Assembly (NCBI GenBank): GCA_964636085.1
Contig: CAZWPQ010000005.1
Span: 32,730-89,965 of the forward strand
Direction of reading: 5' to 3'
DNA length: 57,236 nucleotides
Origin: an uncultured Nitrososphaerota archaeon
GTDB lineage: Archaea > Asgardarchaeota > Njordarchaeia > Njordarchaeales > Panguiarchaeaceae
The notes below the pieces were generated by a model, which ran no database searches, was not told the origin of the DNA, and saw nothing but the letters and a program-made list of their open reading frames with translations. The translations under genes and the position numbers were made by a program. Below are positions 19,982 through 56,666 of this stretch, one piece after another (positions within the stretch are counted from its first letter, which is position 1; each line of letters begins with the position of its first letter).

Positions 19982-20013
19982 GGATAGCACTGCAATGTTT
20001 ATAATTCGCAAAA

Positions 20014-24580: not shown

Positions 24581-25936
24581 TTATCCTCCAAGCCCCACTA
24601 CTTGTAGGTTCCTAAATCTTATTGCCGGTAGGAGTATTGCCCCTATTTGCTCGCGTTTTTTCGCTATTCCAGTTATGTTGTTTAATGCTTTATATAGATT
24701 CCCGATTAGGAGAGCATGTTTTATTGGTTGTTTTTTCTCCCCCTCCTCTATCATGATTGCACTTCTGATTTCCATCCCAAAGTTTCCAGTTATAAAATCC
24801 ACATTCGGTATTGCAAACTTCTCTACTACGAGTCCCTTGTCCATCTCTGCCATCAATGTATCTAGATCCTTATTTCCAGGAGTAATCTCTATGTTTGATG
24901 GTGCTGTTCCTGCTGGAGCCTTATGAGTTCCCTCTATTGTCCTTGTTCCCCTCCTGAAGCCATTTCCTCTAGGCTCAACCTTTGCTATTCTTGCATTATA
25001 ATAGTCGAATAGATAATTCTTCAGTACCCCCTTCTCGATTATTGGTTTCCTAGTTGTTGGGACTCCTTCATCGTCGGCTAGTGCACTCTTTAGCCCATAC
25101 TTCATTCTACCGTCATCAATCATTGTGAAGCTCTCTTCTGCGACCTTCTCCCCAATTTTCCCGATCCAAGGGCTTCTATGTCTATTTATATTCTCCCCGT
25201 TTACTGCCACCAATATTGCTGTTAGCATCCCCGCTAGTTCCATGGGTTCAACAATTACATCCAGTGTCTCCATCCCCGTATATGGCTTTGCTCTCGACGC
25301 TAATATAGTTTTTTCATGTAGCTCTACACCAGCATTTTCCCAGTCAATCCCATTCAGCATTGTTGAGTATCTCTTTATTATTCCCTCCCCCATCTCCTTC
25401 TTTGCTAGAAAGTGGACAAATATGTTTGTTCCTTTATGGGTATAGTCAACCCCTAGCGAATTCATTACTTGGAATTCGAATATGTTTATTCTTATCAGCC
25501 CCTTCATGACTCTTACATCATCCTTCTCTGCGTTCTCTATGATCATATTTGCATAACTGGCTAAGCCTTCTGAATCGATATTTTCGGCCTCCTCATCATA
25601 TACCCCCTCTACATGACCAGTTATACTCTTCGGTTCTGGTAGCGACTCAAATTTTTCGTCCTCTGGAGCAATCCTCGCTATCCTTATCCCATCCCTTATA
25701 AGTTTCTTCAGATCCTCATCATTCCTATATATCCCCGAGATGAAGCCAACGCGTTTCCCAATTACCGACTTTATACCTACCCCTATCCACGTATTATATG
25801 TTACTATGCTTGGTTTCCCCGCCTCTACGTATAGATTTACCATCTTGCCATTAATCACGAAACCCTCTATCTGGTCGGCCCCCTCCTTCTCACCTATCTC
25901 AATTATTTTTCTGCACACCTCCCCAAGCATAACCAT
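24581..25936 (-). CDS. pmbA: PmbA/TldE-family metalloprotease subunit
   Basis: PmbA_TldD-family length and C-terminal ..AIRFRNLQVVGLGG. ATG 25936 lies directly after the tldD stop (TAG 25941-25939) and is preceded by the SD-like GGGGGTGGAT. The track ORF start at 26023 would overlap tldD by 85 nt. Confidence 0.85.
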   Translation of the reverse strand: MVMLGEVCRKIIEIGEKEGADQIEGFVINGKMVNLYVEAGKPSIVTYNTWIGVGIKSVIGKRVGFISGIYRNDEDLKKLIRDGIRIARIAPEDEKFESLPEPKSITGHVEGVYDEEAENIDSEGLASYANMIIENAEKDDVRVMKGLIRINIFEFQVMNSLGVDYTHKGTNIFVHFLAKKEMGEGIIKRYSTMLNGIDWENAGVELHEKTILASRAKPYTGMETLDVIVEPMELAGMLTAILVAVNGENINRHRSPWIGKIGEKVAEESFTMIDDGRMKYGLKSALADDEGVPTTRKPIIEKGVLKNYLFDYYNARIAKVEPRGNGFRRGTRTIEGTHKAPAGTAPSNIEITPGNKDLDTLMAEMDKGLVVEKFAIPNVDFITGNFGMEIRSAIMIEEGEKKQPIKHALLIGNLYKALNNITGIAKKREQIGAILLPAIRFRNLQVVGLGG

Positions 25937-25938
25937 TC

Positions 25939-27318
25939 CTATCCACCCCCAACCAAGATTTTGGCACGCATATATGGGCCTCCGACCCCCACATATACCA
26001 TGTCTTCTTCTCCCTTCCCACACTGTCCCCCATGAAGCCTAAACTCTTTGCTTGTAGCATTGACCGTTTTTAGTATCTCCAAGGCTTTCCCCGTCAATGT
26101 AAATCCCCTCACAATATGCTGCTTTTCTCCATTCTTTATTAGGTACCCTCTTAACACCCTACATTCAAATCCACCACCAACAGGATCCTCCATACCGCCC
26201 AGCATATCTAGGGCAAGGAGCCCCTCTTTGGTATCCTCGATTATTTCATCAAGCGACCATTCTCCAGGCTCAAAGAATGTATTGGTCATCCTCACAAATA
26301 CCCTCCTATTAAAGTCTTGGGCTCTTCCATTTCCCGTTGGTTTTTTATTCATAATCGCAGCAGTCTCTAAACTATGCATGTATCCCCTATATATCCCCTT
26401 CTCGATTATAACTGTTCTTGATGATGGAGTCCCCTCACTATCGAAAGGTATCATCCCATTCCCCCCATTTATGGTTCCATCATCAACCATGGTGACCAAT
26501 TCCGAACCAACCTCTTTGCCAACAACACCAGTTAAAAAGCTTCTAGCCTTGATTATCTCGTCCGCTTCCGAAGCATGACCCATGACTTCATGAGCCAATA
26601 CACCAGAGACACTTGGATCCATTATCACATCCATTAGCCCACTTGGGGGCTTTTTTGCGGATAACAATTCTATTGCCTTCATCGCTACATTTTTACCCTC
26701 TTCCTCCAAGTCCATGTTTTTGACTAATTCAAACCCATATGTACCATCCTTAATTGTGTATGCATACTGCATTTTTTCAGCCTTCCTCGCAACGGCATAC
26801 CCAACAATTCTCGTCCTTACCTCTTCCCATGATATGTCTCCACCCTGCGAGTTTACCAGATGAATACTCAGTATAGACTCAGAGTATAAAGAGTTGGAAT
26901 TGATGATTCTCTTGTCTGCATCCCTCTGGGCCCTATCTAGAACCATTACTGCATCTATCTTATCCTCAAGATCTACATCCATAGGGTTTATTCGGATTGG
27001 CGCCTTCATCTTCATACTCCTTGTTGTTGCATCTAGTTCCAGCTTTCCTTTTCCGTAGGCACTTAGTTTTTCTGTATTTTTGTATGCCCTTTCTGCGGCA
27101 GATTTGAGAGAATCCCAAGTTAGCTCAGTTGTGGATGCATATCCCCAAACACCATTTATCATCACTCTTATCGAGACACCCTCCGCCTTGTCTATGTTTA
27201 TATATCTCAGCTCTCCATTAACAACCCCAATCCCGCACCCATATCTCCGTTCGAGTCTAACATCACAGAAATCAACATTCTTACCTAATAGGTACTCGAC
27301 TATATCCTCGATTTTCAT
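25939..27318 (-). CDS. tldD: TldD-family Zn metalloprotease
   Basis: HExxxH motif in VLAHEVMGHASEAD, the GGMEDPVGGGF block, and the C-terminal MRAKILVGGG. Confidence 0.9.
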   Translation of the reverse strand: MKIEDIVEYLLGKNVDFCDVRLERRYGCGIGVVNGELRYINIDKAEGVSIRVMINGVWGYASTTELTWDSLKSAAERAYKNTEKLSAYGKGKLELDATTRSMKMKAPIRINPMDVDLEDKIDAVMVLDRAQRDADKRIINSNSLYSESILSIHLVNSQGGDISWEEVRTRIVGYAVARKAEKMQYAYTIKDGTYGFELVKNMDLEEEGKNVAMKAIELLSAKKPPSGLMDVIMDPSVSGVLAHEVMGHASEADEIIKARSFLTGVVGKEVGSELVTMVDDGTINGGNGMIPFDSEGTPSSRTVIIEKGIYRGYMHSLETAAIMNKKPTGNGRAQDFNRRVFVRMTNTFFEPGEWSLDEIIEDTKEGLLALDMLGGMEDPVGGGFECRVLRGYLIKNGEKQHIVRGFTLTGKALEILKTVNATSKEFRLHGGQCGKGEEDMVYVGVGGPYMRAKILVGGG

Positions 27319-40309: not shown

Positions 40310-43300
40310 CTATTCCTTTGTAAACATACCAATCATGGACTGAACTATATAGGGGCCAATTATCAACAATGCTATTGGTATCGCCACTATGACGAATGCT
40401 ATGTCTTGGAATATGGGTATCGTTGTAAAAGCACTGAGTCCTAGTAAACCAAGGAAGACCAGAGTTCTTATTCTAATGCTACCCGATATACGTCTCAGTT
40501 GATCTCTTACCTCTTTGTCAATAATGCTTTGTGGAACATCATTTTTTTCGTAAATCAGAAGTTTTTTATGAACATAATATATGTCCTTATACGAATTAAC
40601 GATTATTACCGAGAATACTGACACATACGCCGTCAAAAAGCTTATTACTATCGCAGGAGCAACTATCGGGCCAAGCGAGGCCACAACCTCGACCACATAT
40701 TCTTGTGTCCATTCTATCTCATTGCATAAACCAACAATAAACATTAGAATTATTACTGGAAGTATGAATAGCCAGATATTCATCACTGCCCTCATTTTGC
40801 TTATTTTTCTCAGCCTCAACGCCTTTACCGCATCGATGTATATCCTTAATCCATACAACATTACTGACAAAACTAGGCATGCTATAAGTATTAGTAGCGA
40901 TATACCTGTGTCGAATATATATAGGCCATGCATGAGAGGAAGGAAACCCGCTAGTAACACCATTACTATTAGTAGCCCTGACAAACAATAGTATATCTTG
41001 CTTAGCATCCCAACTCCTTGTTCCACATTCATCCTTACTTTTCTTGTAATGATAAAGTGGGTGATCGATACTACTAAGGAAAACACTATAACTGATATTG
41101 CTAATAGGATATAATCCATGTGTCCAAGGCTGAGAGAGGGAACGGATGAATGAACGCGAAGTTTAAACTCTCCTATTGATTCCTTGGCGCCAGAGACATC
41201 CATAATTAGTTTCACAGTATATGTACCATGTTTTAACCCGTCGGTATCTATGATAATTTCATAAGTTCCTGGACTGACTTCTTGAGCCTTATAGACACCA
41301 TACTCTTCGCTCTTGTTTGTTATTACGGCATATATGTCTGCTCCCGTCACCGCTTTTCCTTCTGAATCATAGAGGTATATTCTGACAGTTGAATTTTCTC
41401 CCACCACCACTTCTTTTGTGCTTATAGCAATCTCAACGGATATCTCACCTAGTCTCGTTGGTATACGGATAATCTCAGGAGTTTCACTAGATACTAGAAA
41501 TGGAGCGTCAGTATAGTTAAGTGGGATCCTTGACCCTCCATATGAAACATATATTGTTAGCAGGTATTCTCCGTATTCCAGAAGACCGAGATCAGCAATT
41601 CCAGACGCATTTGTCGTTTTCTCTAGTGTCGCTAAGCCCGTTTTTAGTAAGATAGTAGCATTGTGGATAGGCATATTCTCCTCATCAACAAGTTCTAGGG
41701 AAACATAAACAGCGGGCATCTGTATTGTTATGCTAATACCACCTAAGGGTATATCTACATCCATATATTCTGAAGAAATTTCCTCTATCTCTCCCCCTAT
41801 TTTTCCCCTCACCTTTATCGCTACATCCAAAGGCAAATGGTAGAACGTAACGATCCCGCTCTCGTTTGTCTGCTTATATATCGTAGTTGTACCGATCATT
41901 AGTTCTATTGTCGCGTTGGGTAATATTTCATTTCTACCATCAACAACGACTATTGATAGATCTGCTATATTGAGCAATACATCGTACTCCTGTAATGTAT
42001 CATTGAAAACGACTTCAACAACTGCATATACTGGCAATCCATAGGGTGTGACATATTCACAATATATCTTTAGCTTATAGCCGACTGGCACATTCTCTAG
42101 CATTAAGTAGCTAGAATTTCTCAACTCCACATCAAATATCGGTGGCCCGCCTAGACTTGGTACGATTGATATATATCCATCCTCTACAACTACATTCCTG
42201 TATGCCCCAAATGTTTGGTAGATAAATGAAAAGTTAACTGCTCCTAGCGGTAGGAAGATATAGTTGCATCCCGTACAATTCAACTCTGTTGTTGATTCAA
42301 CCACTAATTCACCAAGCTTATACTGGGCTATTGCCCATATCTTCTCTACCTTCAAAATGGTCCCATTGTATATGAAATATGCCCCCAGCGTAGGGAAATC
42401 CCTCAATATATATGTCCCATTCTCACTCATAAGAATTATATCGAAATCATAGTAGATGGATCTAGACTCTATTAGTACTTTTATATTAGAACCTATTGTT
42501 AGGTTCTTCAACAGGTTTAATGTTCTCATGATTATTATCCCAACACTCACAACATAGTTCACCGTTTCGTTCACATCTACAACATTCATACCCACATAGT
42601 CAATAACCAATATACCCCACTCCGTATAGTGCTTAAGAACAATTGTATACTCGCCAAATGGTACTAGATCCACTACACCACTACCATTTTCAAGATAAAC
42701 AGACGCAATAGTTGTTTGTGATTCGTTATGGATTATCTCGAGCAGAACACCTACTGGATCACCATCCTTGCTTCTTACATTAAATGTTATCTCCGATAAA
42801 GACTGCGGCACCCCTATGTTATAAATGTTTGCGGGCCAGTCCAGTACCGTTACATATTCGGTAGCTATACTTATATCCCTTACATTTCCCACAGATGTTA
42901 TATTAAATGATGTCCAGCCATACAAAATCGGCGCTGGGAACACCTCTATTACGACGAAGCCGAGCTTTCCTGCGCTGAATTTTCCTACATACGTACCGTT
43001 CACAGTGACGTTGAAGGTAAAGAATGGCAATCGTATGGATTCATTATATTCTGGATATGCATAAAGTACCACATCAACAAAATAGAATAGAGTTATATTT
43101 ACCTCGTCTCTGGTAATATTGACCAAGGTACTATTTAATATCGGTAGGTTATATGCCCTTGCTGATGCCGATATCTCCCATATATGGTTCAGTGGCAAAT
43201 AGTACACTTCCAATGTTCCACTTTTGGAAAACGACGCTACTGAACTGCCCGTCGTGTTCAACTTTAAAACTATGTATATATCGGGCATCTTGAATTGTAA

Positions 43301-46249
43301 TCCCATATAGCTACCAAATACGTTTACCTTTGCCAAATAGACGATCCCCAAATCGACATAAACAACATCGTTGCTCACAAGACCGCTTATAGTTCGGGAT
43401 TCTGAGACGACGACCCCCCACTTTCGGCAGAGATATGATACATTGAATTCTATGCTTGGGAGAAATGTTACATTTGGAACCATCTTTATTGTCTTGTATG
43501 TTGAATCTACAAACGTGGTAAACCATGTATCATCTGCTGCCCGTATCCTTAAAGTCCAATTAGACAAACTTTGTCCATCAGCCGTCTTGGGCCTGATCTC
43601 TAGATCATGTAAACCAAGAACCACAACTATATTAGTTATTACCAACGAGGATTGATTATACATCTTGCTATTAAATGCATAGACCTTGAATATCTCCGAG
43701 TAATAAAGAACCGACACATTGCACAGTTTGTTAGACCTATTAGCCAGCGGTATTCCAACAATTTCTACTAGTCCATTTAGGCCCGTGGTATAATTTTGGG
43801 TAGAATACTGCCCTAGTTTTACACAGACCTGTGCTCCAAGGACATTGCGATCATTTTTATCCTTAACATTTACAATGACTTTTCCTAAATCCGCGTATAT
43901 AATTGTATCTAGGTCTGTGTCGTAGTCATATTCGTCATGGAGTGACTCACTGATATTGACCCCTAATACTGGTGGTATATTTGCTTCTACGGTATAATTG
44001 CCGAAGGGCATATCACCGAATTCTGCTATACCCGTAAATGTAGTTTGTGTAACATGGGCACCAGCCACACTCATGTAGCTAGATGAGATTAATGTGAGTT
44101 TAACATTGATGGGGGCATCGATGGTGTCATTGCTAACCTGCGGGTGATACCTAATAACAACTTTGATGTCACAGATGGGCATTACTGGCTTTATCTCCAC
44201 ATAGTCCAGATCTAAGAGGAAGTATGTATACTCCTTCTCTACGTCACCAATAGTGGTATTGGATTTTGCATAAACACTATAAAATCCCGGTAGTAGGGGC
44301 TTGAAGTAATACGTCGTATATAACACGGATCCATTCATAGAGTAGTTAAACCAGTATAGCGTTAATGGCCATGAATAATTATAGATTACCCGAATAGTGG
44401 CGTTTATGTTGGGGGGTTCACGTGGATCTGTGACCCTTTTAACCGCATATACCACCATCTCATTATAGTTTGACTGTATATTTCCAACTGTGCTAGTATT
44501 TGGGTTAACCCATGGGGGATTTGCCATTATATCGGCCACAATCCTAGATATTGCATATATGTCGGCCCACTTTGCTACATCGACTCCTATGACGCAATCA
44601 AGCCTAATTGTATCGTTTGGATATATCTCCACCCGGCCAAATTGAAGACCGAATGTGGAGAATAGCCCATCATATTCCCAGGATTCACCATATGTGCTGT
44701 TCAGATATACGAAATAGGAGCCCTGCTTCGAGTATGGATATAGATCCACAGAACTATTCTTCGGGCTTACAAAATATATTATCCTATCTACCATATATGT
44801 GTCTCCTGTGCTTCCTGGCCCCCATATCCCATAGCTGTAGAGTACATCTGATCTGTTACCATACGCCATTTCTCTTGGGAGACCATATGTATTTCCCTTT
44901 GATTCTCCAGATATATTGAGCTCATTCAGAACCTCCCCCGAGGGGAATGCGGGATCGTCATACCAAGCAAAAACTTGGAAGCCCGATCCATACTCGCTAG
45001 GCGATATGTTAAACCTATTATATCCACCGTATGTGTCATGTGTAAGGGACCTACCACCATTATCGTCATCGATCTTTATGAGTTCACTCCTATTATTAAT
45101 CATCACGATAGATCTGTTGAACCATCTCTGGTATGAGTAGAATGTATAATTTAGGGATAAGTATACATCTAATAGGGGATCATATGTTCCCTCGGAATAA
45201 TATGGATATAGGGGGGCTTGCCTAAATATTAGCTTGGCATACACGGGACCCATAAGAATCTCTTTCTCAACAGCGGCATCAAGAAGGGGGGCATAGACAC
45301 CTAGCAAATCGTCACTCCTCGTATAGAAGTAAAATGCAAGAGTTTCTAGCCTATATGGACCATTTATGGAGTCTTCCTGATCATGATATGCAGATACGCC
45401 TCTCTTAACAACTAAGTCTACATCAAATAATACATCCCTCGTTTGAGCATCAACTATCCTTGTGAGCCCCATTTTTGTGGCCCAAGTGGGTGTGTCTATG
45501 GTTGGTGTTGGTATTTGATTCATTTCTGTTATAAGTATTTCATACTCTAAGTATTCAGTGGTCACTGTTATGAATTTTAGGGGGTTATCAGCGATCGTAT
45601 TATTTGTGTGTATAGACACATTAAGCATTACTCCATCAATCCAGTATGATACATTATCATCACCTATCATGTACCTCTTGGTATAAATTGGTTGGGGCAG
45701 TAAATCGGATAAATTCATGCTCTCGTTGGAATAATAGAAGAAATATACAGAATAGCTCTTAGGCTCGGCCGACGCAAAGAACCACAAGTCAAAATTTTTG
45801 AGATAATCTACTACGGGTGTATTATTGCAGATTTGGAAGACAACAGTATTATTGTCTTTGTCCACGAGGATAAATGATTGGTTATAGGGCTTTGGTATAT
45901 TGGAGGCAGTAAAATTTAGATGCACTCTAATAGGCCAGTCCTCCATGGGATATGATGCATTATTATATACTAGTATGGGTATGCGAAATGGTAAATTTTG
46001 GAAATGCCATGAACTAAGGAGATCTGTGTCCTCCATAATCCTTATTTTTTTGTGTATAATGGGTTTCCCGTCCGATATCATTATCATATATCCATCCTCC
46101 CCCTGTGTACCTGCTATCTTCATAATTTTGGATTCATTTTCTGTCTCATGCGTTGCGTGTTTTGCTTGTTTCACGATACCCGACACAACATAGACAGTAC
46201 TATTAATTACCAGAATTAGGAGAAACATGCAGAGTATCTTGTCCCTCAT
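40310..46249 (-). CDS. Giant envelope protein (about 1980 aa): signal peptide, unique ~700-aa N-terminal region, many prealbumin/Ig-like repeats, and a C-terminal module of 7 hydrophobic segments
   Basis: MRDKILCMFLLILVINSTVYVVSG is signal-like. Repeats carry TTGLNGLVEIVGIP, TNESGIVTFYHLP, TNASGIADLGLLEYGEY and DSEGKAVTGADIY turns. The last 273 aa contain seven hydrophobic stretches. Start placed at ATG 46249 because a TATA-like box lies 25-34 nt upstream. The track ORF extends to ATG 46390. Confidence 0.85.
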   Translation of the reverse strand: MRDKILCMFLLILVINSTVYVVSGIVKQAKHATHETENESKIMKIAGTQGEDGYMIMISDGKPIIHKKIRIMEDTDLLSSWHFQNLPFRIPILVYNNASYPMEDWPIRVHLNFTASNIPKPYNQSFILVDKDNNTVVFQICNNTPVVDYLKNFDLWFFASAEPKSYSVYFFYYSNESMNLSDLLPQPIYTKRYMIGDDNVSYWIDGVMLNVSIHTNNTIADNPLKFITVTTEYLEYEILITEMNQIPTPTIDTPTWATKMGLTRIVDAQTRDVLFDVDLVVKRGVSAYHDQEDSINGPYRLETLAFYFYTRSDDLLGVYAPLLDAAVEKEILMGPVYAKLIFRQAPLYPYYSEGTYDPLLDVYLSLNYTFYSYQRWFNRSIVMINNRSELIKIDDDNGGRSLTHDTYGGYNRFNISPSEYGSGFQVFAWYDDPAFPSGEVLNELNISGESKGNTYGLPREMAYGNRSDVLYSYGIWGPGSTGDTYMVDRIIYFVSPKNSSVDLYPYSKQGSYFVYLNSTYGESWEYDGLFSTFGLQFGRVEIYPNDTIRLDCVIGVDVAKWADIYAISRIVADIMANPPWVNPNTSTVGNIQSNYNEMVVYAVKRVTDPREPPNINATIRVIYNYSWPLTLYWFNYSMNGSVLYTTYYFKPLLPGFYSVYAKSNTTIGDVEKEYTYFLLDLDYVEIKPVMPICDIKVVIRYHPQVSNDTIDAPINVKLTLISSSYMSVAGAHVTQTTFTGIAEFGDMPFGNYTVEANIPPVLGVNISESLHDEYDYDTDLDTIIYADLGKVIVNVKDKNDRNVLGAQVCVKLGQYSTQNYTTGLNGLVEIVGIPLANRSNKLCNVSVLYYSEIFKVYAFNSKMYNQSSLVITNIVVVLGLHDLEIRPKTADGQSLSNWTLRIRAADDTWFTTFVDSTYKTIKMVPNVTFLPSIEFNVSYLCRKWGVVVSESRTISGLVSNDVVYVDLGIVYLAKVNVFGSYMGLQFKMPDIYIVLKLNTTGSSVASFSKSGTLEVYYLPLNHIWEISASARAYNLPILNSTLVNITRDEVNITLFYFVDVVLYAYPEYNESIRLPFFTFNVTVNGTYVGKFSAGKLGFVVIEVFPAPILYGWTSFNITSVGNVRDISIATEYVTVLDWPANIYNIGVPQSLSEITFNVRSKDGDPVGVLLEIIHNESQTTIASVYLENGSGVVDLVPFGEYTIVLKHYTEWGILVIDYVGMNVVDVNETVNYVVSVGIIIMRTLNLLKNLTIGSNIKVLIESRSIYYDFDIILMSENGTYILRDFPTLGAYFIYNGTILKVEKIWAIAQYKLGELVVESTTELNCTGCNYIFLPLGAVNFSFIYQTFGAYRNVVVEDGYISIVPSLGGPPIFDVELRNSSYLMLENVPVGYKLKIYCEYVTPYGLPVYAVVEVVFNDTLQEYDVLLNIADLSIVVVDGRNEILPNATIELMIGTTTIYKQTNESGIVTFYHLPLDVAIKVRGKIGGEIEEISSEYMDVDIPLGGISITIQMPAVYVSLELVDEENMPIHNATILLKTGLATLEKTTNASGIADLGLLEYGEYLLTIYVSYGGSRIPLNYTDAPFLVSSETPEIIRIPTRLGEISVEIAISTKEVVVGENSTVRIYLYDSEGKAVTGADIYAVITNKSEEYGVYKAQEVSPGTYEIIIDTDGLKHGTYTVKLIMDVSGAKESIGEFKLRVHSSVPSLSLGHMDYILLAISVIVFSLVVSITHFIITRKVRMNVEQGVGMLSKIYYCLSGLLIVMVLLAGFLPLMHGLYIFDTGISLLILIACLVLSVMLYGLRIYIDAVKALRLRKISKMRAVMNIWLFILPVIILMFIVGLCNEIEWTQEYVVEVVASLGPIVAPAIVISFLTAYVSVFSVIIVNSYKDIYYVHKKLLIYEKNDVPQSIIDKEVRDQLRRISGSIRIRTLVFLGLLGLSAFTTIPIFQDIAFVIVAIPIALLIIGPYIVQSMIGMFTKE

Positions 46250-46273
46250 AAAAAGACACCACATTAAGTAACG

Positions 46274-46283
46274 ATTATTAAAA
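46274..46283 (-). promoter_or_regulatory. TATA-like box (TTTTAATAAT on the minus strand) for the giant gene
   Basis: Plus-strand attattaaaa at 46274-46283 lies 25-34 nt upstream of ATG 46249. Confidence 0.4.
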
Positions 46284-46413
46284 CAAGCGAACACATAATA
46301 AAAATTTTTCATGATAAGTTTGCTAAAAACACTAGGCGTGTTAAGAAAACTTCTATTTGATCTAGTTTGGATCACTCGGCAAGGATGCATAGGAGAAAAT
46401 AGACGTATATGGG

Positions 46414-48455: not shown

Positions 48456-48866
48456 TTATTTTTCTTTCATAAGCAGGGGTTCCCTTTCAATTATTAAAAA
48501 CCGGCCCCTAACATCGACAACATATGCATAGTCGCCCCGCTTAAAATTGCTCTTCACAGAGAAAGCCCTCCATAGTTCTCCCCTAAAACGCACATATCCA
48601 TCCTTTGTAGGTGTTATTTCGTCTAGAACTGTACAGATGCCACCAATCATGGGGTATGGAGACTCAGTTCTATCCGCTACTTGGACTGGCCTAATTCTTT
48701 GTGATAGCCTTATTATCATGTACAGCAATACTGATGTGATAATCAGCGACGTGCATGCAAAAATAATTGAGGCGAATGTAGCGTGGCTTGTCATTAGCAT
48801 CATTATTATCAAAAACATGAAAAACATCAGAAAGTAGAATAGCGAAACAACATCCATAGCATCCAT
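48456..48866 (-). CDS. nfeD: NfeD-family membrane protein (short form with a C-terminal OB-fold)
   Basis: Two N-terminal TMs, then GGICTVLDEITPTKDGYVRFRGELWRAFS...GDYAYVVDVRGRFLIIE. It lies directly downstream of the stomatin gene, the classic pairing. Confidence 0.8.
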   Translation of the reverse strand: MDAMDVVSLFYFLMFFMFLIIMMLMTSHATFASIIFACTSLIITSVLLYMIIRLSQRIRPVQVADRTESPYPMIGGICTVLDEITPTKDGYVRFRGELWRAFSVKSNFKRGDYAYVVDVRGRFLIIEREPLLMKEK

Positions 48867-48872
48867 TCACCA

Positions 48873-49760
48873 CTACTTCTTCTTTTTGGCGGAACTCACC
48901 GCCAACGTAGCCGCGAGAGCGCTCTCCAAATTACCAAAAGTTGTTGGATATAGAAGTATTGTATTCTTTTCCTTCGCTACTTCAACCAGCGTAGTCAGTT
49001 CCCGCAATCGAAGGGCAACTGGATTTTTCTCGTAATATTCAGCAGCCTCCGCCATTATCTTTGCAGCCTGCCTTTCACCTTCAGCACTTATTATCTTTGC
49101 CCTTCTCTCCCTCTCCGCCTCAGCTTGCATGGCCATCGCTCTTATCATGCTTTCTGGAAGATATACTTGCTGAAGCGCTACTGATATTATTTTTATTCCC
49201 CACTCCCCAACTACACTATCTACTTCGTCCTGTATCAGCTTTGCCATTTCCTCACGTTTTTGAAGAATCTCATCAAGCTCATGAATACCCAAAACTTCTC
49301 TCAAATTGGCTTGACCATATTGAAATAGAAGCCTTGGAATATTTTTAACAGTTATAAATGCCTTCCCTGGATCCATTATGCGGTATATTATTACTGCATC
49401 TACCTTTATATTTATATTGTCTTTTGTGAGTATTTCTTGTGCTGGAATATCTATTGTTTGGACTCGAAGGTCAAACCTATAAGCCTTATCCAGTATTGGG
49501 TCTATGAATATTACTCCAGGGCCTTTCATACCGACATATCGTCCCAGTCTGAGCACTGCTGCACGTTCATATTCTGGGATTACCTTAACGCCAGCGGCTA
49601 ATAGAGGAAGACCAAAAATTAAGAGCATTACAGCTAGGAGTGTCAATACATCAGCTATAGTAACCGTGGTTGTCACCATCATTGATGATACTGCAATCGC
49701 CCATAATATTAACGGAATGAGAAATGGAGTTATTGGTTTGGAGGCCAAGCACGACACCAC
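48873..49760 (-). CDS. SPFH/band-7 stomatin-like protein
   Basis: VIPEYERAAVLRLGRYVGMKGPG.., ..TKDNINIKVDAVIIYRI.., and a coiled Ala/Glu-rich tail MQAEAERERRAKIISAEGERQAA. GTG start. Confidence 0.9.
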   Translation of the reverse strand: MVSCLASKPITPFLIPLILWAIAVSSMMVTTTVTIADVLTLLAVMLLIFGLPLLAAGVKVIPEYERAAVLRLGRYVGMKGPGVIFIDPILDKAYRFDLRVQTIDIPAQEILTKDNINIKVDAVIIYRIMDPGKAFITVKNIPRLLFQYGQANLREVLGIHELDEILQKREEMAKLIQDEVDSVVGEWGIKIISVALQQVYLPESMIRAMAMQAEAERERRAKIISAEGERQAAKIMAEAAEYYEKNPVALRLRELTTLVEVAKEKNTILLYPTTFGNLESALAATLAVSSAKKKK

Positions 49761-51093: not shown

Positions 51094-51576
51094 ATGGAGA
51101 TAATACTCACATACTTGCTCAATAAGCAGGGTGGAAAAGCCACTTTTGGCGACTTCTATTCCCTCACAAAAATCCCCAAGAGAACCCTAAAGAAATTTCT
51201 CTGGTATTGTCAACGTAGAAAATTGATGAAAAGGGAAATAGGAACATATTACATAACTGATCTTGGGCGCGACTACATAAAGAATGTACCCATAATCACT
51301 ATTGGAAACAAAATCTTCATTACTGTTACCGATGAACGAGTCCATATGATAACCCTTGGCAGGAAAATGAGGATAAGAGAATTCGAAAACGACTTTCTTA
51401 AGAAACTTATACTAAAGAAATGCATAAAGCGCGACGAGATAAGATCATCAAATGATAGACGCATGCTTATGAGCGCGATCAGGCTCTTCAGACTACTAAA
51501 AATGGTGAGACTTAGAGGAGACTCAATCTGCATTGAGCCAAATAGTGAGATATTAAGAACACTTGGGATCTTCTAA
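51094..51576 (+). CDS. Putative winged-helix DNA-binding protein
   Basis: MEIILTYLLNKQGGKATFGDFYSLTKIPKRTLKKFLWYCQRRKLMKREIGTYYITDLGRDYI resembles an archaeal wHTH. ATG at 51094 (the track starts at GTG 51082). Family not recognised. Confidence 0.5.
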   Translation: MEIILTYLLNKQGGKATFGDFYSLTKIPKRTLKKFLWYCQRRKLMKREIGTYYITDLGRDYIKNVPIITIGNKIFITVTDERVHMITLGRKMRIREFENDFLKKLILKKCIKRDEIRSSNDRRMLMSAIRLFRLLKMVRLRGDSICIEPNSEILRTLGIF

Positions 51577-52388
51577 ATTCCTTCCAAAATTACTATCTTT
51601 TCCCCTTGTCTTATATTCAGCAGCTGCTTGGCGGATCCCTTGTTAACCGCTATTTCGACATAGCCATGTGATGTCTGCCTCAGCAATAATAGCGAGCCTT
51701 CTGGGGCTTCTCCATAGGTATTGACAACTCGCGCCGTGTATGTCTTATTTCTCACTAGAATCCGTACCTTCTCTCCATATTTAAAATCTGCTTCGCTAGT
51801 GGGCATGTTAAGAATTATGTTTCCAAACCCATCACATACAATCATCTCCAATATATAGCTCCCCTCCTTCTTCACAGGTTGAGGAAACTCCATCCTAGTA
51901 ATAGATTCCTTCGAAATTTCTTTCCCCAAAGATACGATATCTATACCCCTCGAAATGTGTGCAGCGGCGGGAGCAAATATATCCCTCCCATGAAAAGTTG
52001 TACTTACTTTATCCAACATATATGACCTGTTTGTTATCTCTATAATCTTCTGAATACCATCTTTTTCTGCAGCCCATACTAGACATCCATTATCAGGGCC
52101 AACAAAATAATAGTTATCGGTTTTTATTGCTATTGGTTTCCTCTTTGTCCCAACCCCAGGGTCGACGACACAACAAAATACAGTGTTTTTGGGGAAATAC
52201 CTGTATGTTATGAGAAGATAAAACGCGGCTGCTCTAATATTATATTTTGGGAGATTATGCGCTAGATCAACAATTCTCGCTTGTGGATTGATCCCGAGTA
52301 TTACCCCCTTCACGACTCCTACATACGGATCTGACGCACTAAAGTCTGTCAGGAGTGCTATTATTCGTGCCTCCATAGGGATCCACAT
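51573..52388 (-). CDS. SAM hydroxide adenosyltransferase / SAM hydrolase family protein (DUF62)
   Basis: IALLTDFSASDPYVGVVKGVILGI, VDLAHNLP, FCCVVDPGVGTKRKP and VGPDNGCL. The start overlaps the 3' end of the ThiF-like gene, by 28 nt from ATG 52388 or 16 nt from ATG 52376. Confidence 0.85.
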   Translation of the reverse strand: MWIPMEARIIALLTDFSASDPYVGVVKGVILGINPQARIVDLAHNLPKYNIRAAAFYLLITYRYFPKNTVFCCVVDPGVGTKRKPIAIKTDNYYFVGPDNGCLVWAAEKDGIQKIIEITNRSYMLDKVSTTFHGRDIFAPAAAHISRGIDIVSLGKEISKESITRMEFPQPVKKEGSYILEMIVCDGFGNIILNMPTSEADFKYGEKVRILVRNKTYTARVVNTYGEAPEGSLLLLRQTSHGYVEIAVNKGSAKQLLNIRQGEKIVILEGI

Positions 52389-53098
52389 ACCTCACAGTTT
52401 GGACTCCTAAGCACTTCTAGGTGCTCGAACTCCATGCTATATCCATCATAATATATAATCTTGCCTATAGCTGGCTTGCCTATTCCTGTTATCAATTTTA
52501 TTGTCTCTGTTGCTTGGATAGATCCAATAATACTTGCAGTGGTACCTAGAACTGCTATACCTTCCTCATCTCTGACTCCGCGTATTATACAGTTTAGACA
52601 TGCTGTCTTTCCTGGAATTATGACCATTACTTGGCCCGATAACCCCTGGATACCCCCATGAACCAATATTTTCTGGTGTTTGACACAGGCCTTATTTAGA
52701 ATCAAACGCGTGGCCCAATTATCTAAGCAATCCACTACTATATCGACCCCATCTATGAGCCCATCCACATTTTCCTCCGTTATGGATACATCCAACGGCT
52801 CTATCTCCACATTGGGATTCATCCTCATCAATTTCTCCGCTGCACGATATACCTTCTTATGCCCCAGATCATCCATGTTATATAGTATTTGTCTATTAAG
52901 ATCAGGAAGGGAAACTATATCCCTATCCACTAATCTTATATGGCCTACGCCTACTGCAGCAAGGTATAGTGATACAACAGAGCCAAGCCCCCCTACACCC
53001 ATGATGCTAACGCTGGCTTTTTTAAGATTTTCTTGGCCCTCCACACCAAAAAGCGATAACTGTCTACTATATCTAGACTTTTCCTCATCAGTCAGCAT
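52361..53098 (-). CDS. ThiF/MoeB/UbaA-type E1-like adenylyltransferase (no rhodanese domain)
   Basis: YSRQLSLFGVEGQENL, nucleotide loop IMGVGGLGS, LVDRD..SLPDLNRQ, and two CxxC pairs (CLNC and CEVC). 245 aa. Confidence 0.85.
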   Translation of the reverse strand: MLTDEEKSRYSRQLSLFGVEGQENLKKASVSIMGVGGLGSVVSLYLAAVGVGHIRLVDRDIVSLPDLNRQILYNMDDLGHKKVYRAAEKLMRMNPNVEIEPLDVSITEENVDGLIDGVDIVVDCLDNWATRLILNKACVKHQKILVHGGIQGLSGQVMVIIPGKTACLNCIIRGVRDEEGIAVLGTTASIIGSIQATETIKLITGIGKPAIGKIIYYDGYSMEFEHLEVLRSPNCEVCGSLWRHE

Positions 53099-53101
53099 GT
53101 C

Positions 53102-54724
53102 CTACCTCCTTCTCCTAGATCCAACAACGTGATCTATAACCTTTCTAAAGCATTCCTTATCTAGGCACTCCCTAATACCCATCTCATCCGCAATATCTGC
53201 CATTATGTCATAGACTATTCTTCTCTGCACATTTTCTGATACCTCTGCACACACGATGTGGAATAAATCGCGGCCATGAAATTTTGTTGTGTATGTTCTC
53301 AGAATAAGCTTTGCGTCATGTATCTTTGCTTCTGTAACTGTTCTACTTATGCTCGATAATGTTACCGCGATCGATGGATCATTAAATAGTAGGTATGCGA
53401 ACTTTGTATGCCTTAGTGAGCACTGAGGAGTTGGCCCCATTCGGGGGTCGAATATGATTAAGTACATATTCTTAATGCCAATATAGCCGAGGAAATCATT
53501 TATTTTTTCACTAAGTTCTATGCGGGGTATGTCGAGAATTTTTTTAAGGCTTCTACTTACTTCGCCAAATCCTAATATGTACTTTTTCGCTCTCTCAATG
53601 TTCAGTACATATAGTTTGCCACCTATATTGTCAAGTATGCCTGAACCGTAGAGCGCAGCAACAATATCTGGAGAAATACCTGCTTCCTTAGCCTCTCTAA
53701 TATCAAATGCACCCATCTCTATTACCTTATTCAGAACTCCAGGTTCAATTGTCTTAAATTTCGCCCTTTTTTCCTTCAATGCAAGTTCACGCATTTTCTC
53801 CTTCAAGTATTTCCATTGCCTTATCATAAACTCAAGAATAGCACCAAGGAACATGCCAAATATTGCACCAATGGTCGCTCCAACATAACCGACAATATCC
53901 TTTCCGACTTTCTGGGTACCTATGACTACCCAATATGGCATAATATTCCTCACATATCCATACCAGCCCAATATCGAAAACAGGGTTCCCAATGCCGTAC
54001 TACCAAGGCCTCCTAGCCATCCATAGAAGACACCTATCACAGTGGCCTTGACATAGGGACTTAGGCTACTAATAAACATAGCCAGCTTGCTTGGGGAGTT
54101 AAGACCACATATAGCACCAACAAATATGGACAATAATGCTCCCATTGTGGATAATAATAGACCCATTATTATAAACTTCGCCACATTTTTTACTACCTCA
54201 TGTATGTACTTTAATTTTTCGGATATCGATACCTTTTGTATAAGCATGTTTGCATAGGTTATTAAGGAGTGGACTATAATTGCGATCGGTATACCTATAA
54301 GGCCGACCACGCCCCCAACAAATATCCCATCAAAAAATCCTACAAGCACACACATAATCCTGTTTATAAATTCCCTAGCTTCTTCCCTTCTAAATAGTGT
54401 GCTCCTGGGCAAATATATCTCGATGGATGCTACATGAAAACCTATAAGAATCCCTAGAATGAAAGATGGATATGAATCTTCTGGAAAAATGTTTGATCTG
54501 ACAAGGGATAGCCATTCTAGAAATAATTTTATATACCATCCCTCCGTCGGGAAAGTTATGCTATTGGATGCATAGATAATCAATAGGGATATCGACATAG
54601 AGAGATACCATGATGGCACCAATACCAACAAAAAAAGTATGTCTCGTATGCTCTTAACCTTTATTCTCTCGATCCCAATTATTATGAGGATTGATAGTGT
54701 GAGTATAATAATGGCATCGATCAT
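53102..54724 (-). CDS. Polytopic membrane protein (about 8 TM) with a ~220-aa cytoplasmic C-terminal region, possibly a Roadblock/longin-like alpha-beta domain
   Basis: The N-terminal 300 aa are hydrophobic and Gly-rich (GVVGLIGIPIAIIV, GWLGGLGSTALGTLFSILGW). A charged helix KEKMRELALKEKRAKF follows. The tail ..LSEKINDFLGYIGIKNMYLIIFDPRMGP..IAVTLSSISRTVTEAKI..AKLILRTYT..DLFHIVCAEV..VQRRIVYDIMADIADEM has an alpha-beta-beta-alpha-beta-beta-alpha-looking pattern. Confidence 0.6.
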   Translation of the reverse strand: MIDAIIILTLSILIIIGIERIKVKSIRDILFLLVLVPSWYLSMSISLLIIYASNSITFPTEGWYIKLFLEWLSLVRSNIFPEDSYPSFILGILIGFHVASIEIYLPRSTLFRREEAREFINRIMCVLVGFFDGIFVGGVVGLIGIPIAIIVHSLITYANMLIQKVSISEKLKYIHEVVKNVAKFIIMGLLLSTMGALLSIFVGAICGLNSPSKLAMFISSLSPYVKATVIGVFYGWLGGLGSTALGTLFSILGWYGYVRNIMPYWVVIGTQKVGKDIVGYVGATIGAIFGMFLGAILEFMIRQWKYLKEKMRELALKEKRAKFKTIEPGVLNKVIEMGAFDIREAKEAGISPDIVAALYGSGILDNIGGKLYVLNIERAKKYILGFGEVSRSLKKILDIPRIELSEKINDFLGYIGIKNMYLIIFDPRMGPTPQCSLRHTKFAYLLFNDPSIAVTLSSISRTVTEAKIHDAKLILRTYTTKFHGRDLFHIVCAEVSENVQRRIVYDIMADIADEMGIRECLDKECFRKVIDHVVGSRRRR

Positions 54725-54749: not shown

Positions 54750-55604
54750 TTATACTTTGCCCCATCTCTTCCTCGCTTCGTCCATATACTTTATGAGGGC
54801 CTTATTACAATAGTTTATTGCATCGCCTAGTTGTGATTTATAATCATAAACACCCGCCACCACAAAATCACTATTAACGCGCCTCGCAATCGCCAAGAAT
54901 CTTATGTTCTCGAATTTTATCGCCATATACTCTAGTGATCCTCTTTTGTATATCGGATAGAATACCTCCTCCATGAACTTTAAGGCCTCCTTATTACCGA
55001 CAACACTTATTGGGAGCATATGACTATCAATCAAAAACGCGGCTCTAGCATTTGTATTCACTCGAAGGACATCCACAATAGCATCTATCCCGACCTTCTT
55101 TATATCTCCATAGAACATTCTCAAAAGCTCATACATGCTAAATACGTCCAAGACACTTGTATTTATCATCCTTATCCTGTATTTCTTGATGTCGTCCTTT
55201 GGGAATATATTATATATTATAGTCTCAGCTCGCTTAGCCGTTTTTTTGTCTTGCTTATGAGCCACAAAAATGACCTCCATATCCTTTCTCGCATACTTCT
55301 TTATCATCTTCTTGAGATACTCCCAATATTGCCTAGCCTCTGGAAATCTCGTGGGATCTCCAGCATCAACTACATAACCCAATCTATCAGCTAAGGGAAA
55401 ATACTGCTCATAGAAAACCTCTATGTTCCTAAAGCGGGCCTGTCCCGGTACAACATAAATCGAGAGGTAATGCTTCTTATACGTCTCAATGTTATTCGAC
55501 GCAATATATGGCTTCATGGCCTCGCTCTTATCCATATTCTCGAGAAAAACCTTGATGGAGGTCTTTCCAGCCTCATCTAGACCACATAGAACAACATTCG
55601 GCAA
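54750..55604 (-). CDS. MglA/Arf-like small GTPase fused to a C-terminal Roadblock/LC7 (MglB-like) domain
   Basis: G1 is GLDEAGKTS, G3 is VVPGQ (the MglA-type xVPGQ with the usual Asp missing), and G4-like is AHKQD. The C-terminal ~110 aa ..NARAAFLIDSHMLPISVVGNKEALKFMEEVF...EYMAIKFENIRFLAIARRVNSDFVVAGVYDYKSQLGDAINYCNKAL looks like Roadblock. TTG start. Confidence 0.7.
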   Translation of the reverse strand: MPNVVLCGLDEAGKTSIKVFLENMDKSEAMKPYIASNNIETYKKHYLSIYVVPGQARFRNIEVFYEQYFPLADRLGYVVDAGDPTRFPEARQYWEYLKKMIKKYARKDMEVIFVAHKQDKKTAKRAETIIYNIFPKDDIKKYRIRMINTSVLDVFSMYELLRMFYGDIKKVGIDAIVDVLRVNTNARAAFLIDSHMLPISVVGNKEALKFMEEVFYPIYKRGSLEYMAIKFENIRFLAIARRVNSDFVVAGVYDYKSQLGDAINYCNKALIKYMDEARKRWGKV

Positions 55605-55910
55605 ATCCTACACCCATACCCCACTATTAAATATATCAAAAAGTTATCCTATATTTGATACACCACCCCAACCAATCAGATTCCCCATTCATCCCTATTC
55701 TAAAAGCATCGATACACATATCCCCAATGCTTTCTGTAAATATTATCAATTATCAAAATATATGCATAATGTCGCAACATGACAACTGTCGGGCTAAATG
55801 TCGAGTCTATTAGAATATTAATGATGCTTTCTCTTCACTAAGAACACAGGCGCTTCATGCGAACTCTATCACTACCCCATGTTTTATCCCTATCCTATAT
55901 TCGCTCTCCT

Positions 55911-56222
55911 TTAGTACGACAAGGGGTCTATTTGAAATCCCGCCATAATCTCATCAAATTTCTCTGCAAAGGCCCTTGTTATCTTGCGCCAGTCTCGTTT
56001 TTTAGCGAGGATAACCACCCTTTGAACAACATAATCATATTCCTTAGAGACATGTGCTATGAAGTCCTTGTCCGCGGTAATTATTATCGCATCCTCCACA
56101 GACGCCATAGATATTATTTCAGAATTGCTCATGCTTAGTGGTGGGCGGATAACTTGATGACCCTTTTTCTTCAGAATCCTCTCAATCGAGCGGGGAATCA
56201 TCTCATCCAAAAGAAAACGCAA
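55911..56222 (-). CDS. DUF5615 (PIN-like, Mut7-C-related) putative toxin
   Basis: MRFLLDEMIPRSIERILKKKGHQVI...ISMASVEDAIIITADKDF. It lies 6 nt downstream of the DUF433 gene. TTG start. Confidence 0.75.
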   Translation of the reverse strand: MRFLLDEMIPRSIERILKKKGHQVIRPPLSMSNSEIISMASVEDAIIITADKDFIAHVSKEYDYVVQRVVILAKKRDWRKITRAFAEKFDEIMAGFQIDPLSY

Positions 56223-56228
56223 TACGGA

Positions 56229-56666
56229 TCACTTCTGGAATGCTATTTTATGCTCAACCGAGCGTGCTAGTGGCTCGATAATATCCCTATATTCTATGAG
56301 GCTCTCTACTGTGTCATATGTTAAGAATGGATACTCCTCCAAGATCTCTGTGATCGAGTAGCCAGAGTCCAGCATATCATATATGTGGAGTACTGGAAGA
56401 CGCGTACCAGCAACAACAACCATACCACAGACCTTATTTGGATCTATCTCATAATACTTTGAGGCCTCTATGTATCTCTCAATAGACTCGCGATTCTCCA
56501 CAACATATTTTAGGATCCTGTCGGACAGAAATGGATACTCGTCAATTATTTCTTCGATACCGTATCCTGAGTCAATCATCTCTAGGATTATTGCGACCTC
56601 TAATCGGGTCCCCACAATGACTGGTCTGCCACCACAAACCTCTGGACGTAACTCAATATACCTCAT
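56229..56666 (-). CDS. DUF433 antitoxin-like protein containing two tandem DUF433 domains
   Basis: Copy 1 is RPEVCGGRPVIVGTRLEVAIILEMIDSGYGIEEIIDEYPFLSDRILKYVVEN. Copy 2 is DPNKVCGMVVVAGTRLPVLHIYDMLDSGYSITEILEEYPFLTYDTVESLIEY. Confidence 0.8.
   Translation of the reverse strand: MRYIELRPEVCGGRPVIVGTRLEVAIILEMIDSGYGIEEIIDEYPFLSDRILKYVVENRESIERYIEASKYYEIDPNKVCGMVVVAGTRLPVLHIYDMLDSGYSITEILEEYPFLTYDTVESLIEYRDIIEPLARSVEHKIAFQK

Follow-up and report, generated by a model that had tools for sequence, protein, structure and literature searches.

Fusions of a Rag-family GTPase to a roadblock or a longin domain have been described as abundant in Asgard archaea (bioRxiv 10.1101/2020.10.19.343400), and the GTPase-roadblock (GTPase-RB) class of 'Ca. 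P. syntrophicum' MKD1 was analysed structurally (Tran et al. 2024, PMC10933270). The RagGtr clade takes in the eukaryotic Rag/Gtr proteins (Vargova et al., bioRxiv 10.1101/2024.02.28.582541), and crystal structures of two Lokiarchaeal Rag-like GTPases, LokiRagO (PDB 8YL2) and LokiRagM (8ZLA), were released in 2025. The GTPase-roadblock architecture of Asgard archaea is already known, published and crystallised; the role of Asgard Rag-like GTPases was stated to be unknown (PMC10933270). Here a gene for a 284-residue protein was analysed, which lies in a 57,236-nucleotide stretch (the window) of contig CAZWPQ010000005.1 from an uncultured archaeon placed by GTDB in the Njordarchaeales. The original prediction, made from the sequence alone, had described an MglA-type GTPase covalently fused to a Roadblock/LC7 domain in Rag/Gtr order, and had presented such fusions as discussed for some archaeal lineages, a novelty framing that is outdated by the publications and structures cited above. 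We regard it as likely that the window gene encodes a divergent Asgard RagGtr GTPase with a C-terminal roadblock domain, in the domain order of RagA-D/Gtr1-2 and LokiRagO. Specific to this locus are a roadblock subfamily hidden from sequence profiles, an xxPGQ motif in a Rag-type GTPase, and a membrane partner that co-diverges with the GTPase.

The Lokiarchaeal proteins (LokiRagO, LokiRagM and the MKD1 GTPase-RB class) share with the window protein the order GTPase then roadblock, and are its best structural match. The G1 GLDxxGKTS, G4 HKxD and G5 T[ST]IxD of LokiRagO recur in the window family, and both groups are often annotated as Arf-like. On the other hand, LokiRagO is ~20% identical and carries a canonical WDLGGQ where the window family has VVPGQ, the roadblock half of the window family is undetectable by sequence, and this family has a conserved membrane-protein neighbour, of which no report was found for the Loki proteins. 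RagA-D/Gtr1-Gtr2 have the same domain order and fold (template modelling (TM) scores of 0.65-0.73 to 6S6A, 3R7W and 4ARZ), a G4 His, a G5 TSIxD and a Pfam Gtr1_RagA match above cut-off in common with the window protein. However, identity is only 12-16%, the roadblock half has no sequence similarity, the G3 of the window GTPase lacks its Asp, no Ragulator/LAMTOR, GATOR or TOR context was seen, and no evidence of an obligate heterodimer was found for the window protein. The Asgard RagGtr sequences of Vargova et al. show the same motif signatures and, in many members, a C-terminal extension of ~130 residues; all 12 references have [DE]xGGQ at G3, whereas the Njord family forms a separate tight cluster of ~285-residue proteins.

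Class of the GTPase domain

The reading frame of the GTPase gene is unbroken across 284 codons, and a longer N-terminus is impossible because an in-frame TAG lies 6 nt 5′ of the TTG start. The three motifs named in the original prediction (GLDEAGKTS, VVPGQ and AHKQD) were all present in the translation, and the N-terminal ~170 residues proved to be a small GTPase as it had stated. Pfam Arf was the top Pfam match (62 bits versus a 22.3-bit cut-off, E 6.5e-17), and both Gtr1_RagA (29 bits versus a 22-bit cut-off, E 8.8e-7) and SRPRB exceeded their cut-offs. Arf and Arl chains led the PDB sequence searches with the GTPase domain, and the NCBI name of one orthologue is 'ADP-ribosylation factor-like protein'. 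In hhalign comparisons, the family profile matched Arf1 with a probability of 98.6% (E 9e-16), M. xanthus MglA with 87.7% (E 3e-6) and RagA with 65% (E 6e-5); these references were checked against the PDB, the RagA sequence being off by one residue.

Because Tran et al. (PMC10933270) report Arf-like annotation of Lokiarchaeal Rag-like GTPase-roadblock proteins, class hidden Markov models (HMMs) were built from the labelled Asgard sequences in Table S3 of Vargova et al. (bioRxiv 10.1101/2024.02.28.582541). Against this small labelled set, in which the RagGtr model comprises 12 Helarchaeales GTPase domains and the MglA model two Asgard MglA1 sequences plus M. xanthus MglA, the window protein scored 69.0 bits with the RagGtr, 16.7 bits with the ArfL and 5.4 bits with the MglA model, and it is therefore Rag-type and not MglA-type. 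When the family HMM was used in reverse, it scored the RagGtr references at 37-66 bits, Arf1 at 57, RagA at 23, MglA at 21 and MglA1 at 7-11. As judged from its sequence, the window GTPase belongs to the RagGtr class, in that G1, G4 and G5 carry RagGtr/LokiRagO signatures and G3 is the sole departure. The G1 form GLDxxGKTS agrees with GLDNSGKTS of LokiRagO and with many Helarchaeales RagGtr sequences, the G5 of the GTPase paralogues reads TSIFD or TSIYD, and Ser36 in switch I aligns with T42 of RagA.

The public Arf-like annotation implies another reading, in which an Arf-family (ArfR/ArfL) GTPase acquired an unrelated, lineage-specific C-terminal extension. The leading Pfam match, the Arf and Arl chains in the PDB searches and the NCBI name would all follow from it, GLDEAGKT fits the Arf G1 form GLDxAGKT, and an xKQD motif is shared as well; Arf/Arl/ArfR proteins indeed give the highest sequence scores for the window GTPase domain. 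However, Arf-family proteins are single-domain (~180 residues) and start with an amphipathic helix that is absent here, where the P-loop begins at residue 8 of a chain preceded so closely by a stop codon. Moreover, the ArfL model gave just 16.7 bits, the window G3, G4 and G5 deviate from Arf, the G4 His and the TSxxD form of G5 being Rag-type, and Tran et al. (PMC10933270) note that Arf is the routine label given to Rag-like proteins of Loki. The protein is 284 residues long with a second domain, which is predicted to fold as a roadblock, and its whole modelled chain matches Rag/Gtr. We consider the Arf reading highly improbable.

The 'MglA-type' label of the original prediction was not upheld, given the HMM scores, the RagGtr-type G1, G4 and G5, and the structural matches described below. 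It was correct in observing that G3, like that of MglA, is without the canonical Asp (VVPGQ versus TVPGQ in MglA), and xxPGQ occupied G3 in 15 of 15 aligned family members, including a 330-residue paralogue (locus L013). The resemblance to MglA appears to be confined to this Asp-less motif. The window GTPase lacks the canonical G3 DxxGQ, where LokiRagO, RagA and 12 of 12 Helarchaeales RagGtr references have [DE]xGGQ; DxxGQ is a general GTPase motif and not a family-defining one, and VVPGQ was treated as a variant feature. An MglA-family GTPase joined to an MglB-like roadblock GTPase-activating protein (GAP) independently of Rag/Gtr, with the GAP acting in cis or in trans, would explain the T/V-V-P-G-Q form of G3 that MglA of Myxococcus and Thermus shares, and would recall that MglA works with a roadblock-fold protein. 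The basic residue K43 (R in orthologues) aligns with Arg53, the intrinsic switch-I arginine finger of MglA, and the predicted roadblock begins and ends with a helix, like full-length roadblock proteins (AlphaFold2 (AF2) model; PMC10933270). Yet MglA and MglB are encoded by separate genes, and G1, G4 and G5 are unlike the GPGLCGKTT and NKRD of MglA. Profile similarity between MglA and the window family is weak (5-21 bits; 5.4 bits for the MglA model versus 69 for RagGtr), and the hhalign E-value for MglA (3e-6) compares with 9e-16 for Arf1. A K/R at position 43/44 is not invariant across orthologues, and the whole-chain Foldseek matches were Rag/Gtr. Such an independent MglA-MglB fusion is very improbable.

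The altered switches also bear on whether the protein still cycles. In a pseudo-GTPase or scaffold reading, loss of the Asp, together with loss of the Arf-type switch-I Thr in the window clade, ended Mg2+-dependent cycling, so that the protein only serves the membrane partner as a structural adaptor. The Asp-less G3 of all 15 aligned members fits this reading, as does Tyr33, which stands opposite T48 of Arf1 in the window clade. However, paralogues that share 29-38% identity show little or no variation in G1 GxxxxGKT/S, Ser36, Gln55, HKQD and TSx, and selection therefore appears to act on nucleotide binding; MglA, without the same Asp, is an active GTPase (PMC9481161). We judge complete loss of cycling improbable. 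Since MglA shows activity, an Asp-less G3 is compatible with it, and the conserved G1, Ser36, G3 Gln, G4 and G5 suggest that the window protein would bind and hydrolyse GTP. The xxPGQ motif inside an otherwise Rag-type GTPase amounts to a natural experiment on dispensing with the Walker-B Asp, and the variant is relevant to how MglA-like and Rag/Arf-like GTPases have been proposed to be related.

Fold of the C-terminal half

The C-terminal ~110 residues had been predicted to show a Roadblock/MglB pattern. By sequence this was not borne out: the Robl_LC7 profile check that had been proposed gave no match, and neither Robl_LC7 nor any other Pfam family was found in the C-terminal half of nine members at E up to 10. 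A PDB profile search with the C-terminal half found nothing, and hhalign against the C-terminal domain of RagA returned a probability of 0.4%. The predicted fold, on the other hand, agreed with the claim. When four distant paralogues were added to the alignment (16 sequences), AF2 produced a whole model with a predicted local distance difference test (pLDDT) score of 85.2 and a predicted TM (pTM) score of 0.79. The C-terminal elements (helix 173-183, strand 188-192, strand 198-203, helix 205-221, strands 226-231, 234-243 and 246-253, and helix 259-281; pLDDT mostly 76-95) follow the order alpha-beta-beta-alpha-beta-beta-beta-alpha, which is the roadblock topology.

Foldseek searches of the PDB with this model, which correspond to the AlphaFold comparison suggested with the original prediction, placed the whole chain nearest LokiRagO and then Rag/Gtr. 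Rag/Gtr and LokiRagO chains aligned over their full length (~290-315 columns) with TM scores of 0.65-0.73. The best match was 8YL2, 'RagA-like small GTPase from Asgard Lokiarchaeota (LokiRagO)' (E 4.7e-17, TM 0.69, 301 columns), followed by human RagA/RagC 6S6A (TM 0.73), yeast Gtr1/Gtr2 3R7W and 4ARZ (TM up to 0.73) and LokiRagM 8ZLA. The C-terminal half aligned to the C-terminal domains of the Rag/Gtr chains. Single-domain Arl and Arf chains came after Rag/Gtr in the list, and no MglA chain was among the top 50 matches. The model thus supports the covalent fusion of a GTPase and a roadblock in Rag/Gtr order that had been predicted, and it suggests that residues ~170-284 form a roadblock domain, confirmed at the level of the modelled fold, that has drifted past detection by sequence profiles. 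Mean column identity was 81% in the C-terminal alignment (nine sequences) versus 75% in the full-length alignment (twelve sequences). By analogy with the Rag/Gtr dimers and the LokiRagO tetramer, the roadblock domain may be a platform for dimerisation or docking. The chain ends in a conserved basic-aromatic tail, which has the pattern R-[KR]-R-x(0,1)-W in most paralogues, with the variants R-G-E-L-W and V-K-R-W in L010/L012 and P0022; speculatively, this tail could contribute to membrane or partner binding.

The Njordarchaeaceae were described as poor in eukaryotic signature proteins (ESPs), with an inferred loss of a Roadblock/LC7 protein (PMC12411855). The predicted fold suggests that this group has retained roadblock domains as parts of Rag-like GTPases, where profile searches have overlooked them. 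Because profile searches miss such domains, roadblock can be underestimated when ESPs are counted with Pfam or arCOG.

A putative membrane partner and a proposed two-gene module

Twelve orthologues with 63-74% identity retain every motif, the best-named of them coming from 'Candidatus Njordarchaeota'. In an exhaustive profile search of 1.84 billion representative proteins, the C-terminal domain was found in only five clusters, all of 281-287-residue proteins with the same Arf-like N-terminus. A locus scan covering one genome per GTDB species recovered seven family loci in four metagenome-assembled genomes (MAGs). Three of the seven lie in the Njordarchaeota-labelled MAGs GB_136 and B13_G17, and the remaining loci in MAGs labelled Nitrososphaerota (CAZVPA01) and Crenarchaeota (JZ-1.bin_83); CAZVPA01 holds three paralogues and B13_G17 two. 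Identity to the window GTPase reaches 69% in the nearest species representative, and the window therefore stems from a relative not yet sampled. The family also occurs in unassigned metagenome contigs. These sequences appear to form a divergent RagGtr subfamily whose source MAGs carry either a Njordarchaeota label or a wrong one. Reverse gyrase is encoded on the contig of an orthologue, which fits the hyperthermophily reported for Njordarchaeales (PMC10307638).

The GTPase gene is followed by a gene whose product, in a crude Kyte-Doolittle scan, has about seven hydrophobic segments ahead of a basic soluble region of ~240 residues. Orthologues of this partner adjoin the GTPase in every orthologous locus (L001, L002, L007, L008). 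Directly after the paralogous GTPases (34-38% identity) of L003, L004, L009, L010 and L012 lies a gene for a protein of ~250 residues with one N-terminal transmembrane helix, the soluble part of which aligns with the C-terminal 240 residues of the window partner. The pairwise identity matrices of GTPase and partner were congruent (Pearson r = 0.95, with the same clades), which is the pattern expected from joint duplication and divergence of the two genes. No description of a co-diverging membrane partner was found in the accessible literature. The partner had no Pfam family match, its profile had no meaningful match in the PDB, and the PADLOC anti-phage defence models matched neither the GTPase nor the partners.

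Several identities for the partner were tried and not adopted. As a roadblock, its soluble domain reached an hhalign probability of 0.2-0.3%. As a GAP longin of the FLCN/NPRL2 type with a GP motif, an idea taken from PMC12290439, it reached 1.2% against an unverified NPRL2 sequence, and the GP motif and candidate Arg were not conserved in the partners of L010 and L012; this identity was rejected. In the window clade, a gapless similarity over 87 residues was seen between residues 414-500 of the partner (53225-53485) and residues 64-150 of the SAM hydroxide adenosyltransferase (SAM_HAT) encoded two genes downstream (51939-52199), including FHGRD[IL]F (blastp 4e-4, Pfam SAM_HAT_N 0.0086). With a broad alignment that included distant partner paralogues, the signal for a degenerate SAM_HAT_N was gone (0.4%), and the likeness is probably a chance or clade-local resemblance.

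Taken as a divergent RagGtr protein, the window GTPase may be a switch that works on the cytoplasmic side of the membrane with the presumably co-transcribed partner, whose soluble domain would be a receptor, regulator or effector of the GTPase. In a wider and rather doubtful proposal, the two genes form a module that was duplicated as a unit in Njordarchaeales, and every GTPase paralogue has retained a membrane receptor of its own. Such a module would parallel, in minimal archaeal form, the membrane-tethered signalling of Rag with Ragulator/Ego or SLC38A9. A signal from the membrane or from a solute would be sensed or transmitted by the multi-pass partner and would reach a Rag-like switch that owes MglA-like nucleotide chemistry to its Asp-less G3. 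The conserved, co-diverging partner offers a concrete candidate interaction for Asgard Rag-like GTPases.

Several results weigh against the main interpretation, a RagGtr GTPase-roadblock protein that acts with the membrane partner. The roadblock call depends on one predicted structure, the Pfam, PDB-profile and hhalign tests all being negative, and AF2 run with the 12 close orthologues left the C-terminal half at pLDDT below 50. The G3 Asp is absent and Tyr33 of the window clade aligns with the switch-I Thr of Arf1 (T48), and the handling of Mg2+ and GTP may therefore not be normal. Moreover, the partner is not next to three paralogues (L005, L006, L011), and the tests of its likeness to roadblock, GAP-longin and SAM_HAT_N folds were negative or unstable.

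Two further arrangements were observed at paralogue loci. In one paralogue clade, a third conserved small gene (L004:7638-8171 and L009:5589-6113; ~175 residues, hydrophobic ends, no Pfam family) follows the GTPase-partner pair and may extend the module there. At L013:3977-5690 (Njordarchaeota B13_G17, JAHKKZ010000004.1), the 330-residue paralogue is a more canonical Rag-like GTPase (Pfam Gtr1_RagA 4e-17) that retains xxPGQ, and its gene is followed by an overlapping gene for a 244-residue protein. The N-terminus of the latter, ILCFVGFAEFDEVEGPVVSKIVPE, recalls the GP motif reported for the FLCN/NPRL2/SMCR8 GAP longins and their Asgard look-alikes (PMC12290439); the 244-residue protein had no Pfam, PDB-sequence or PADLOC match. 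If it is a GAP longin, the two genes would be an archaeal Rag-GAP gene pair.

Coordinates and neighbouring genes

The features of the locus are collected in Table 1. The A/T-rich stretch upstream of the GTPase start is a possible archaeal promoter of the gene.

Table 1. Features of the GTPase locus, in window coordinates
Feature	Position	Strand	Description	Basis
TATA-like A/T-rich stretch tttgatatatttaatag	55624-55640	minus	20-36 nt upstream of GTPase start codon	sequence reading
Rag-like GTPase-roadblock gene (probable), complete	54750-55604	minus	284 aa; TTG start 55604, TAA stop 54752-54750	open reading frame (ORF) list
Small-GTPase domain	55110-55604	minus	residues 1-165	Pfam Arf, Gtr1_RagA, RagGtr class HMM, AF2 pLDDT 73-97
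G1/P-loop GLDEAGKTS	55557-55583	minus	residues 8-16; GLDxxGKT form common to Arf and Asgard RagGtr	alignment with Arf1, LokiRagO, Helarchaeales RagGtr
G3/switch II VVPGQ	55440-55454	minus	residues 51-55; Walker-B Asp to Val, Gly to Pro; catalytic Gln55 kept	
G4 AHKQD	55248-55262	minus	residues 115-119; His for Asn as in RagA HKMD, LokiRagO HKFD	invariant in family alignment
G5 TSVLD	55146-55160	minus	residues 149-153; counterpart of RagA TSIWD, LokiRagO TTIYD	
C-terminal roadblock-fold domain (predicted)	54753-55097	minus	residues ~170-284; unseen by sequence profiles	AF2 topology and Foldseek
Basic-aromatic C-terminal tail ARKRW	54762-54776	minus	residues 277-281; conserved	alignments
Downstream partner gene	53102-54724	minus	540 aa; 25 nt after GTPase stop; no Pfam family	ORF list
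ThiF-family E1-like gene	52361-53098	minus	tightly behind partner gene	Pfam ThiF 2.8e-72
SAM hydroxide adenosyltransferase gene	51573-52388	minus	two genes downstream of partner gene, after ThiF	Pfam SAM_HAT_N 1.9e-58

A 124-residue ATG ORF on the plus strand (55020-55394) runs antisense, wholly within the conserved GTPase gene, and is probably a spurious chance ORF. In L001 and L008, too, the partner gene is succeeded by a ThiF gene, and SAM_HAT follows ThiF in L001 as in the window; both genes were absent from the paralogue loci. Directly upstream of the GTPase gene (55911-56666, minus), genes for a tandem-DUF433 protein (145 residues) and a DUF5615/PIN-like protein (103 residues) look like a toxin-antitoxin pair, which was absent from the orthologous locus L001.

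Further away, a Band_7/SPFH and NfeD gene pair (window 48456-49760, minus; L001:13854-15121) is syntenic between the window and L001, together with genes for NikR_C, HAD-hydrolase and metallophosphatase proteins. Three giant minus-strand ORFs (5768-14668, 14771-20011 and 40310-46390; 2966, 1746 and 2026 residues) gave scattered domain matches only (DUF3712/LEA_2, Big_1/Big_3_5 and CarboxypepD_reg/SpaA) and presumably encode huge surface proteins. Two neighbouring, overlapping genes for TldD/PmbA-family metallopeptidases (480 and 459 residues) were found at 24581-27318 (minus).

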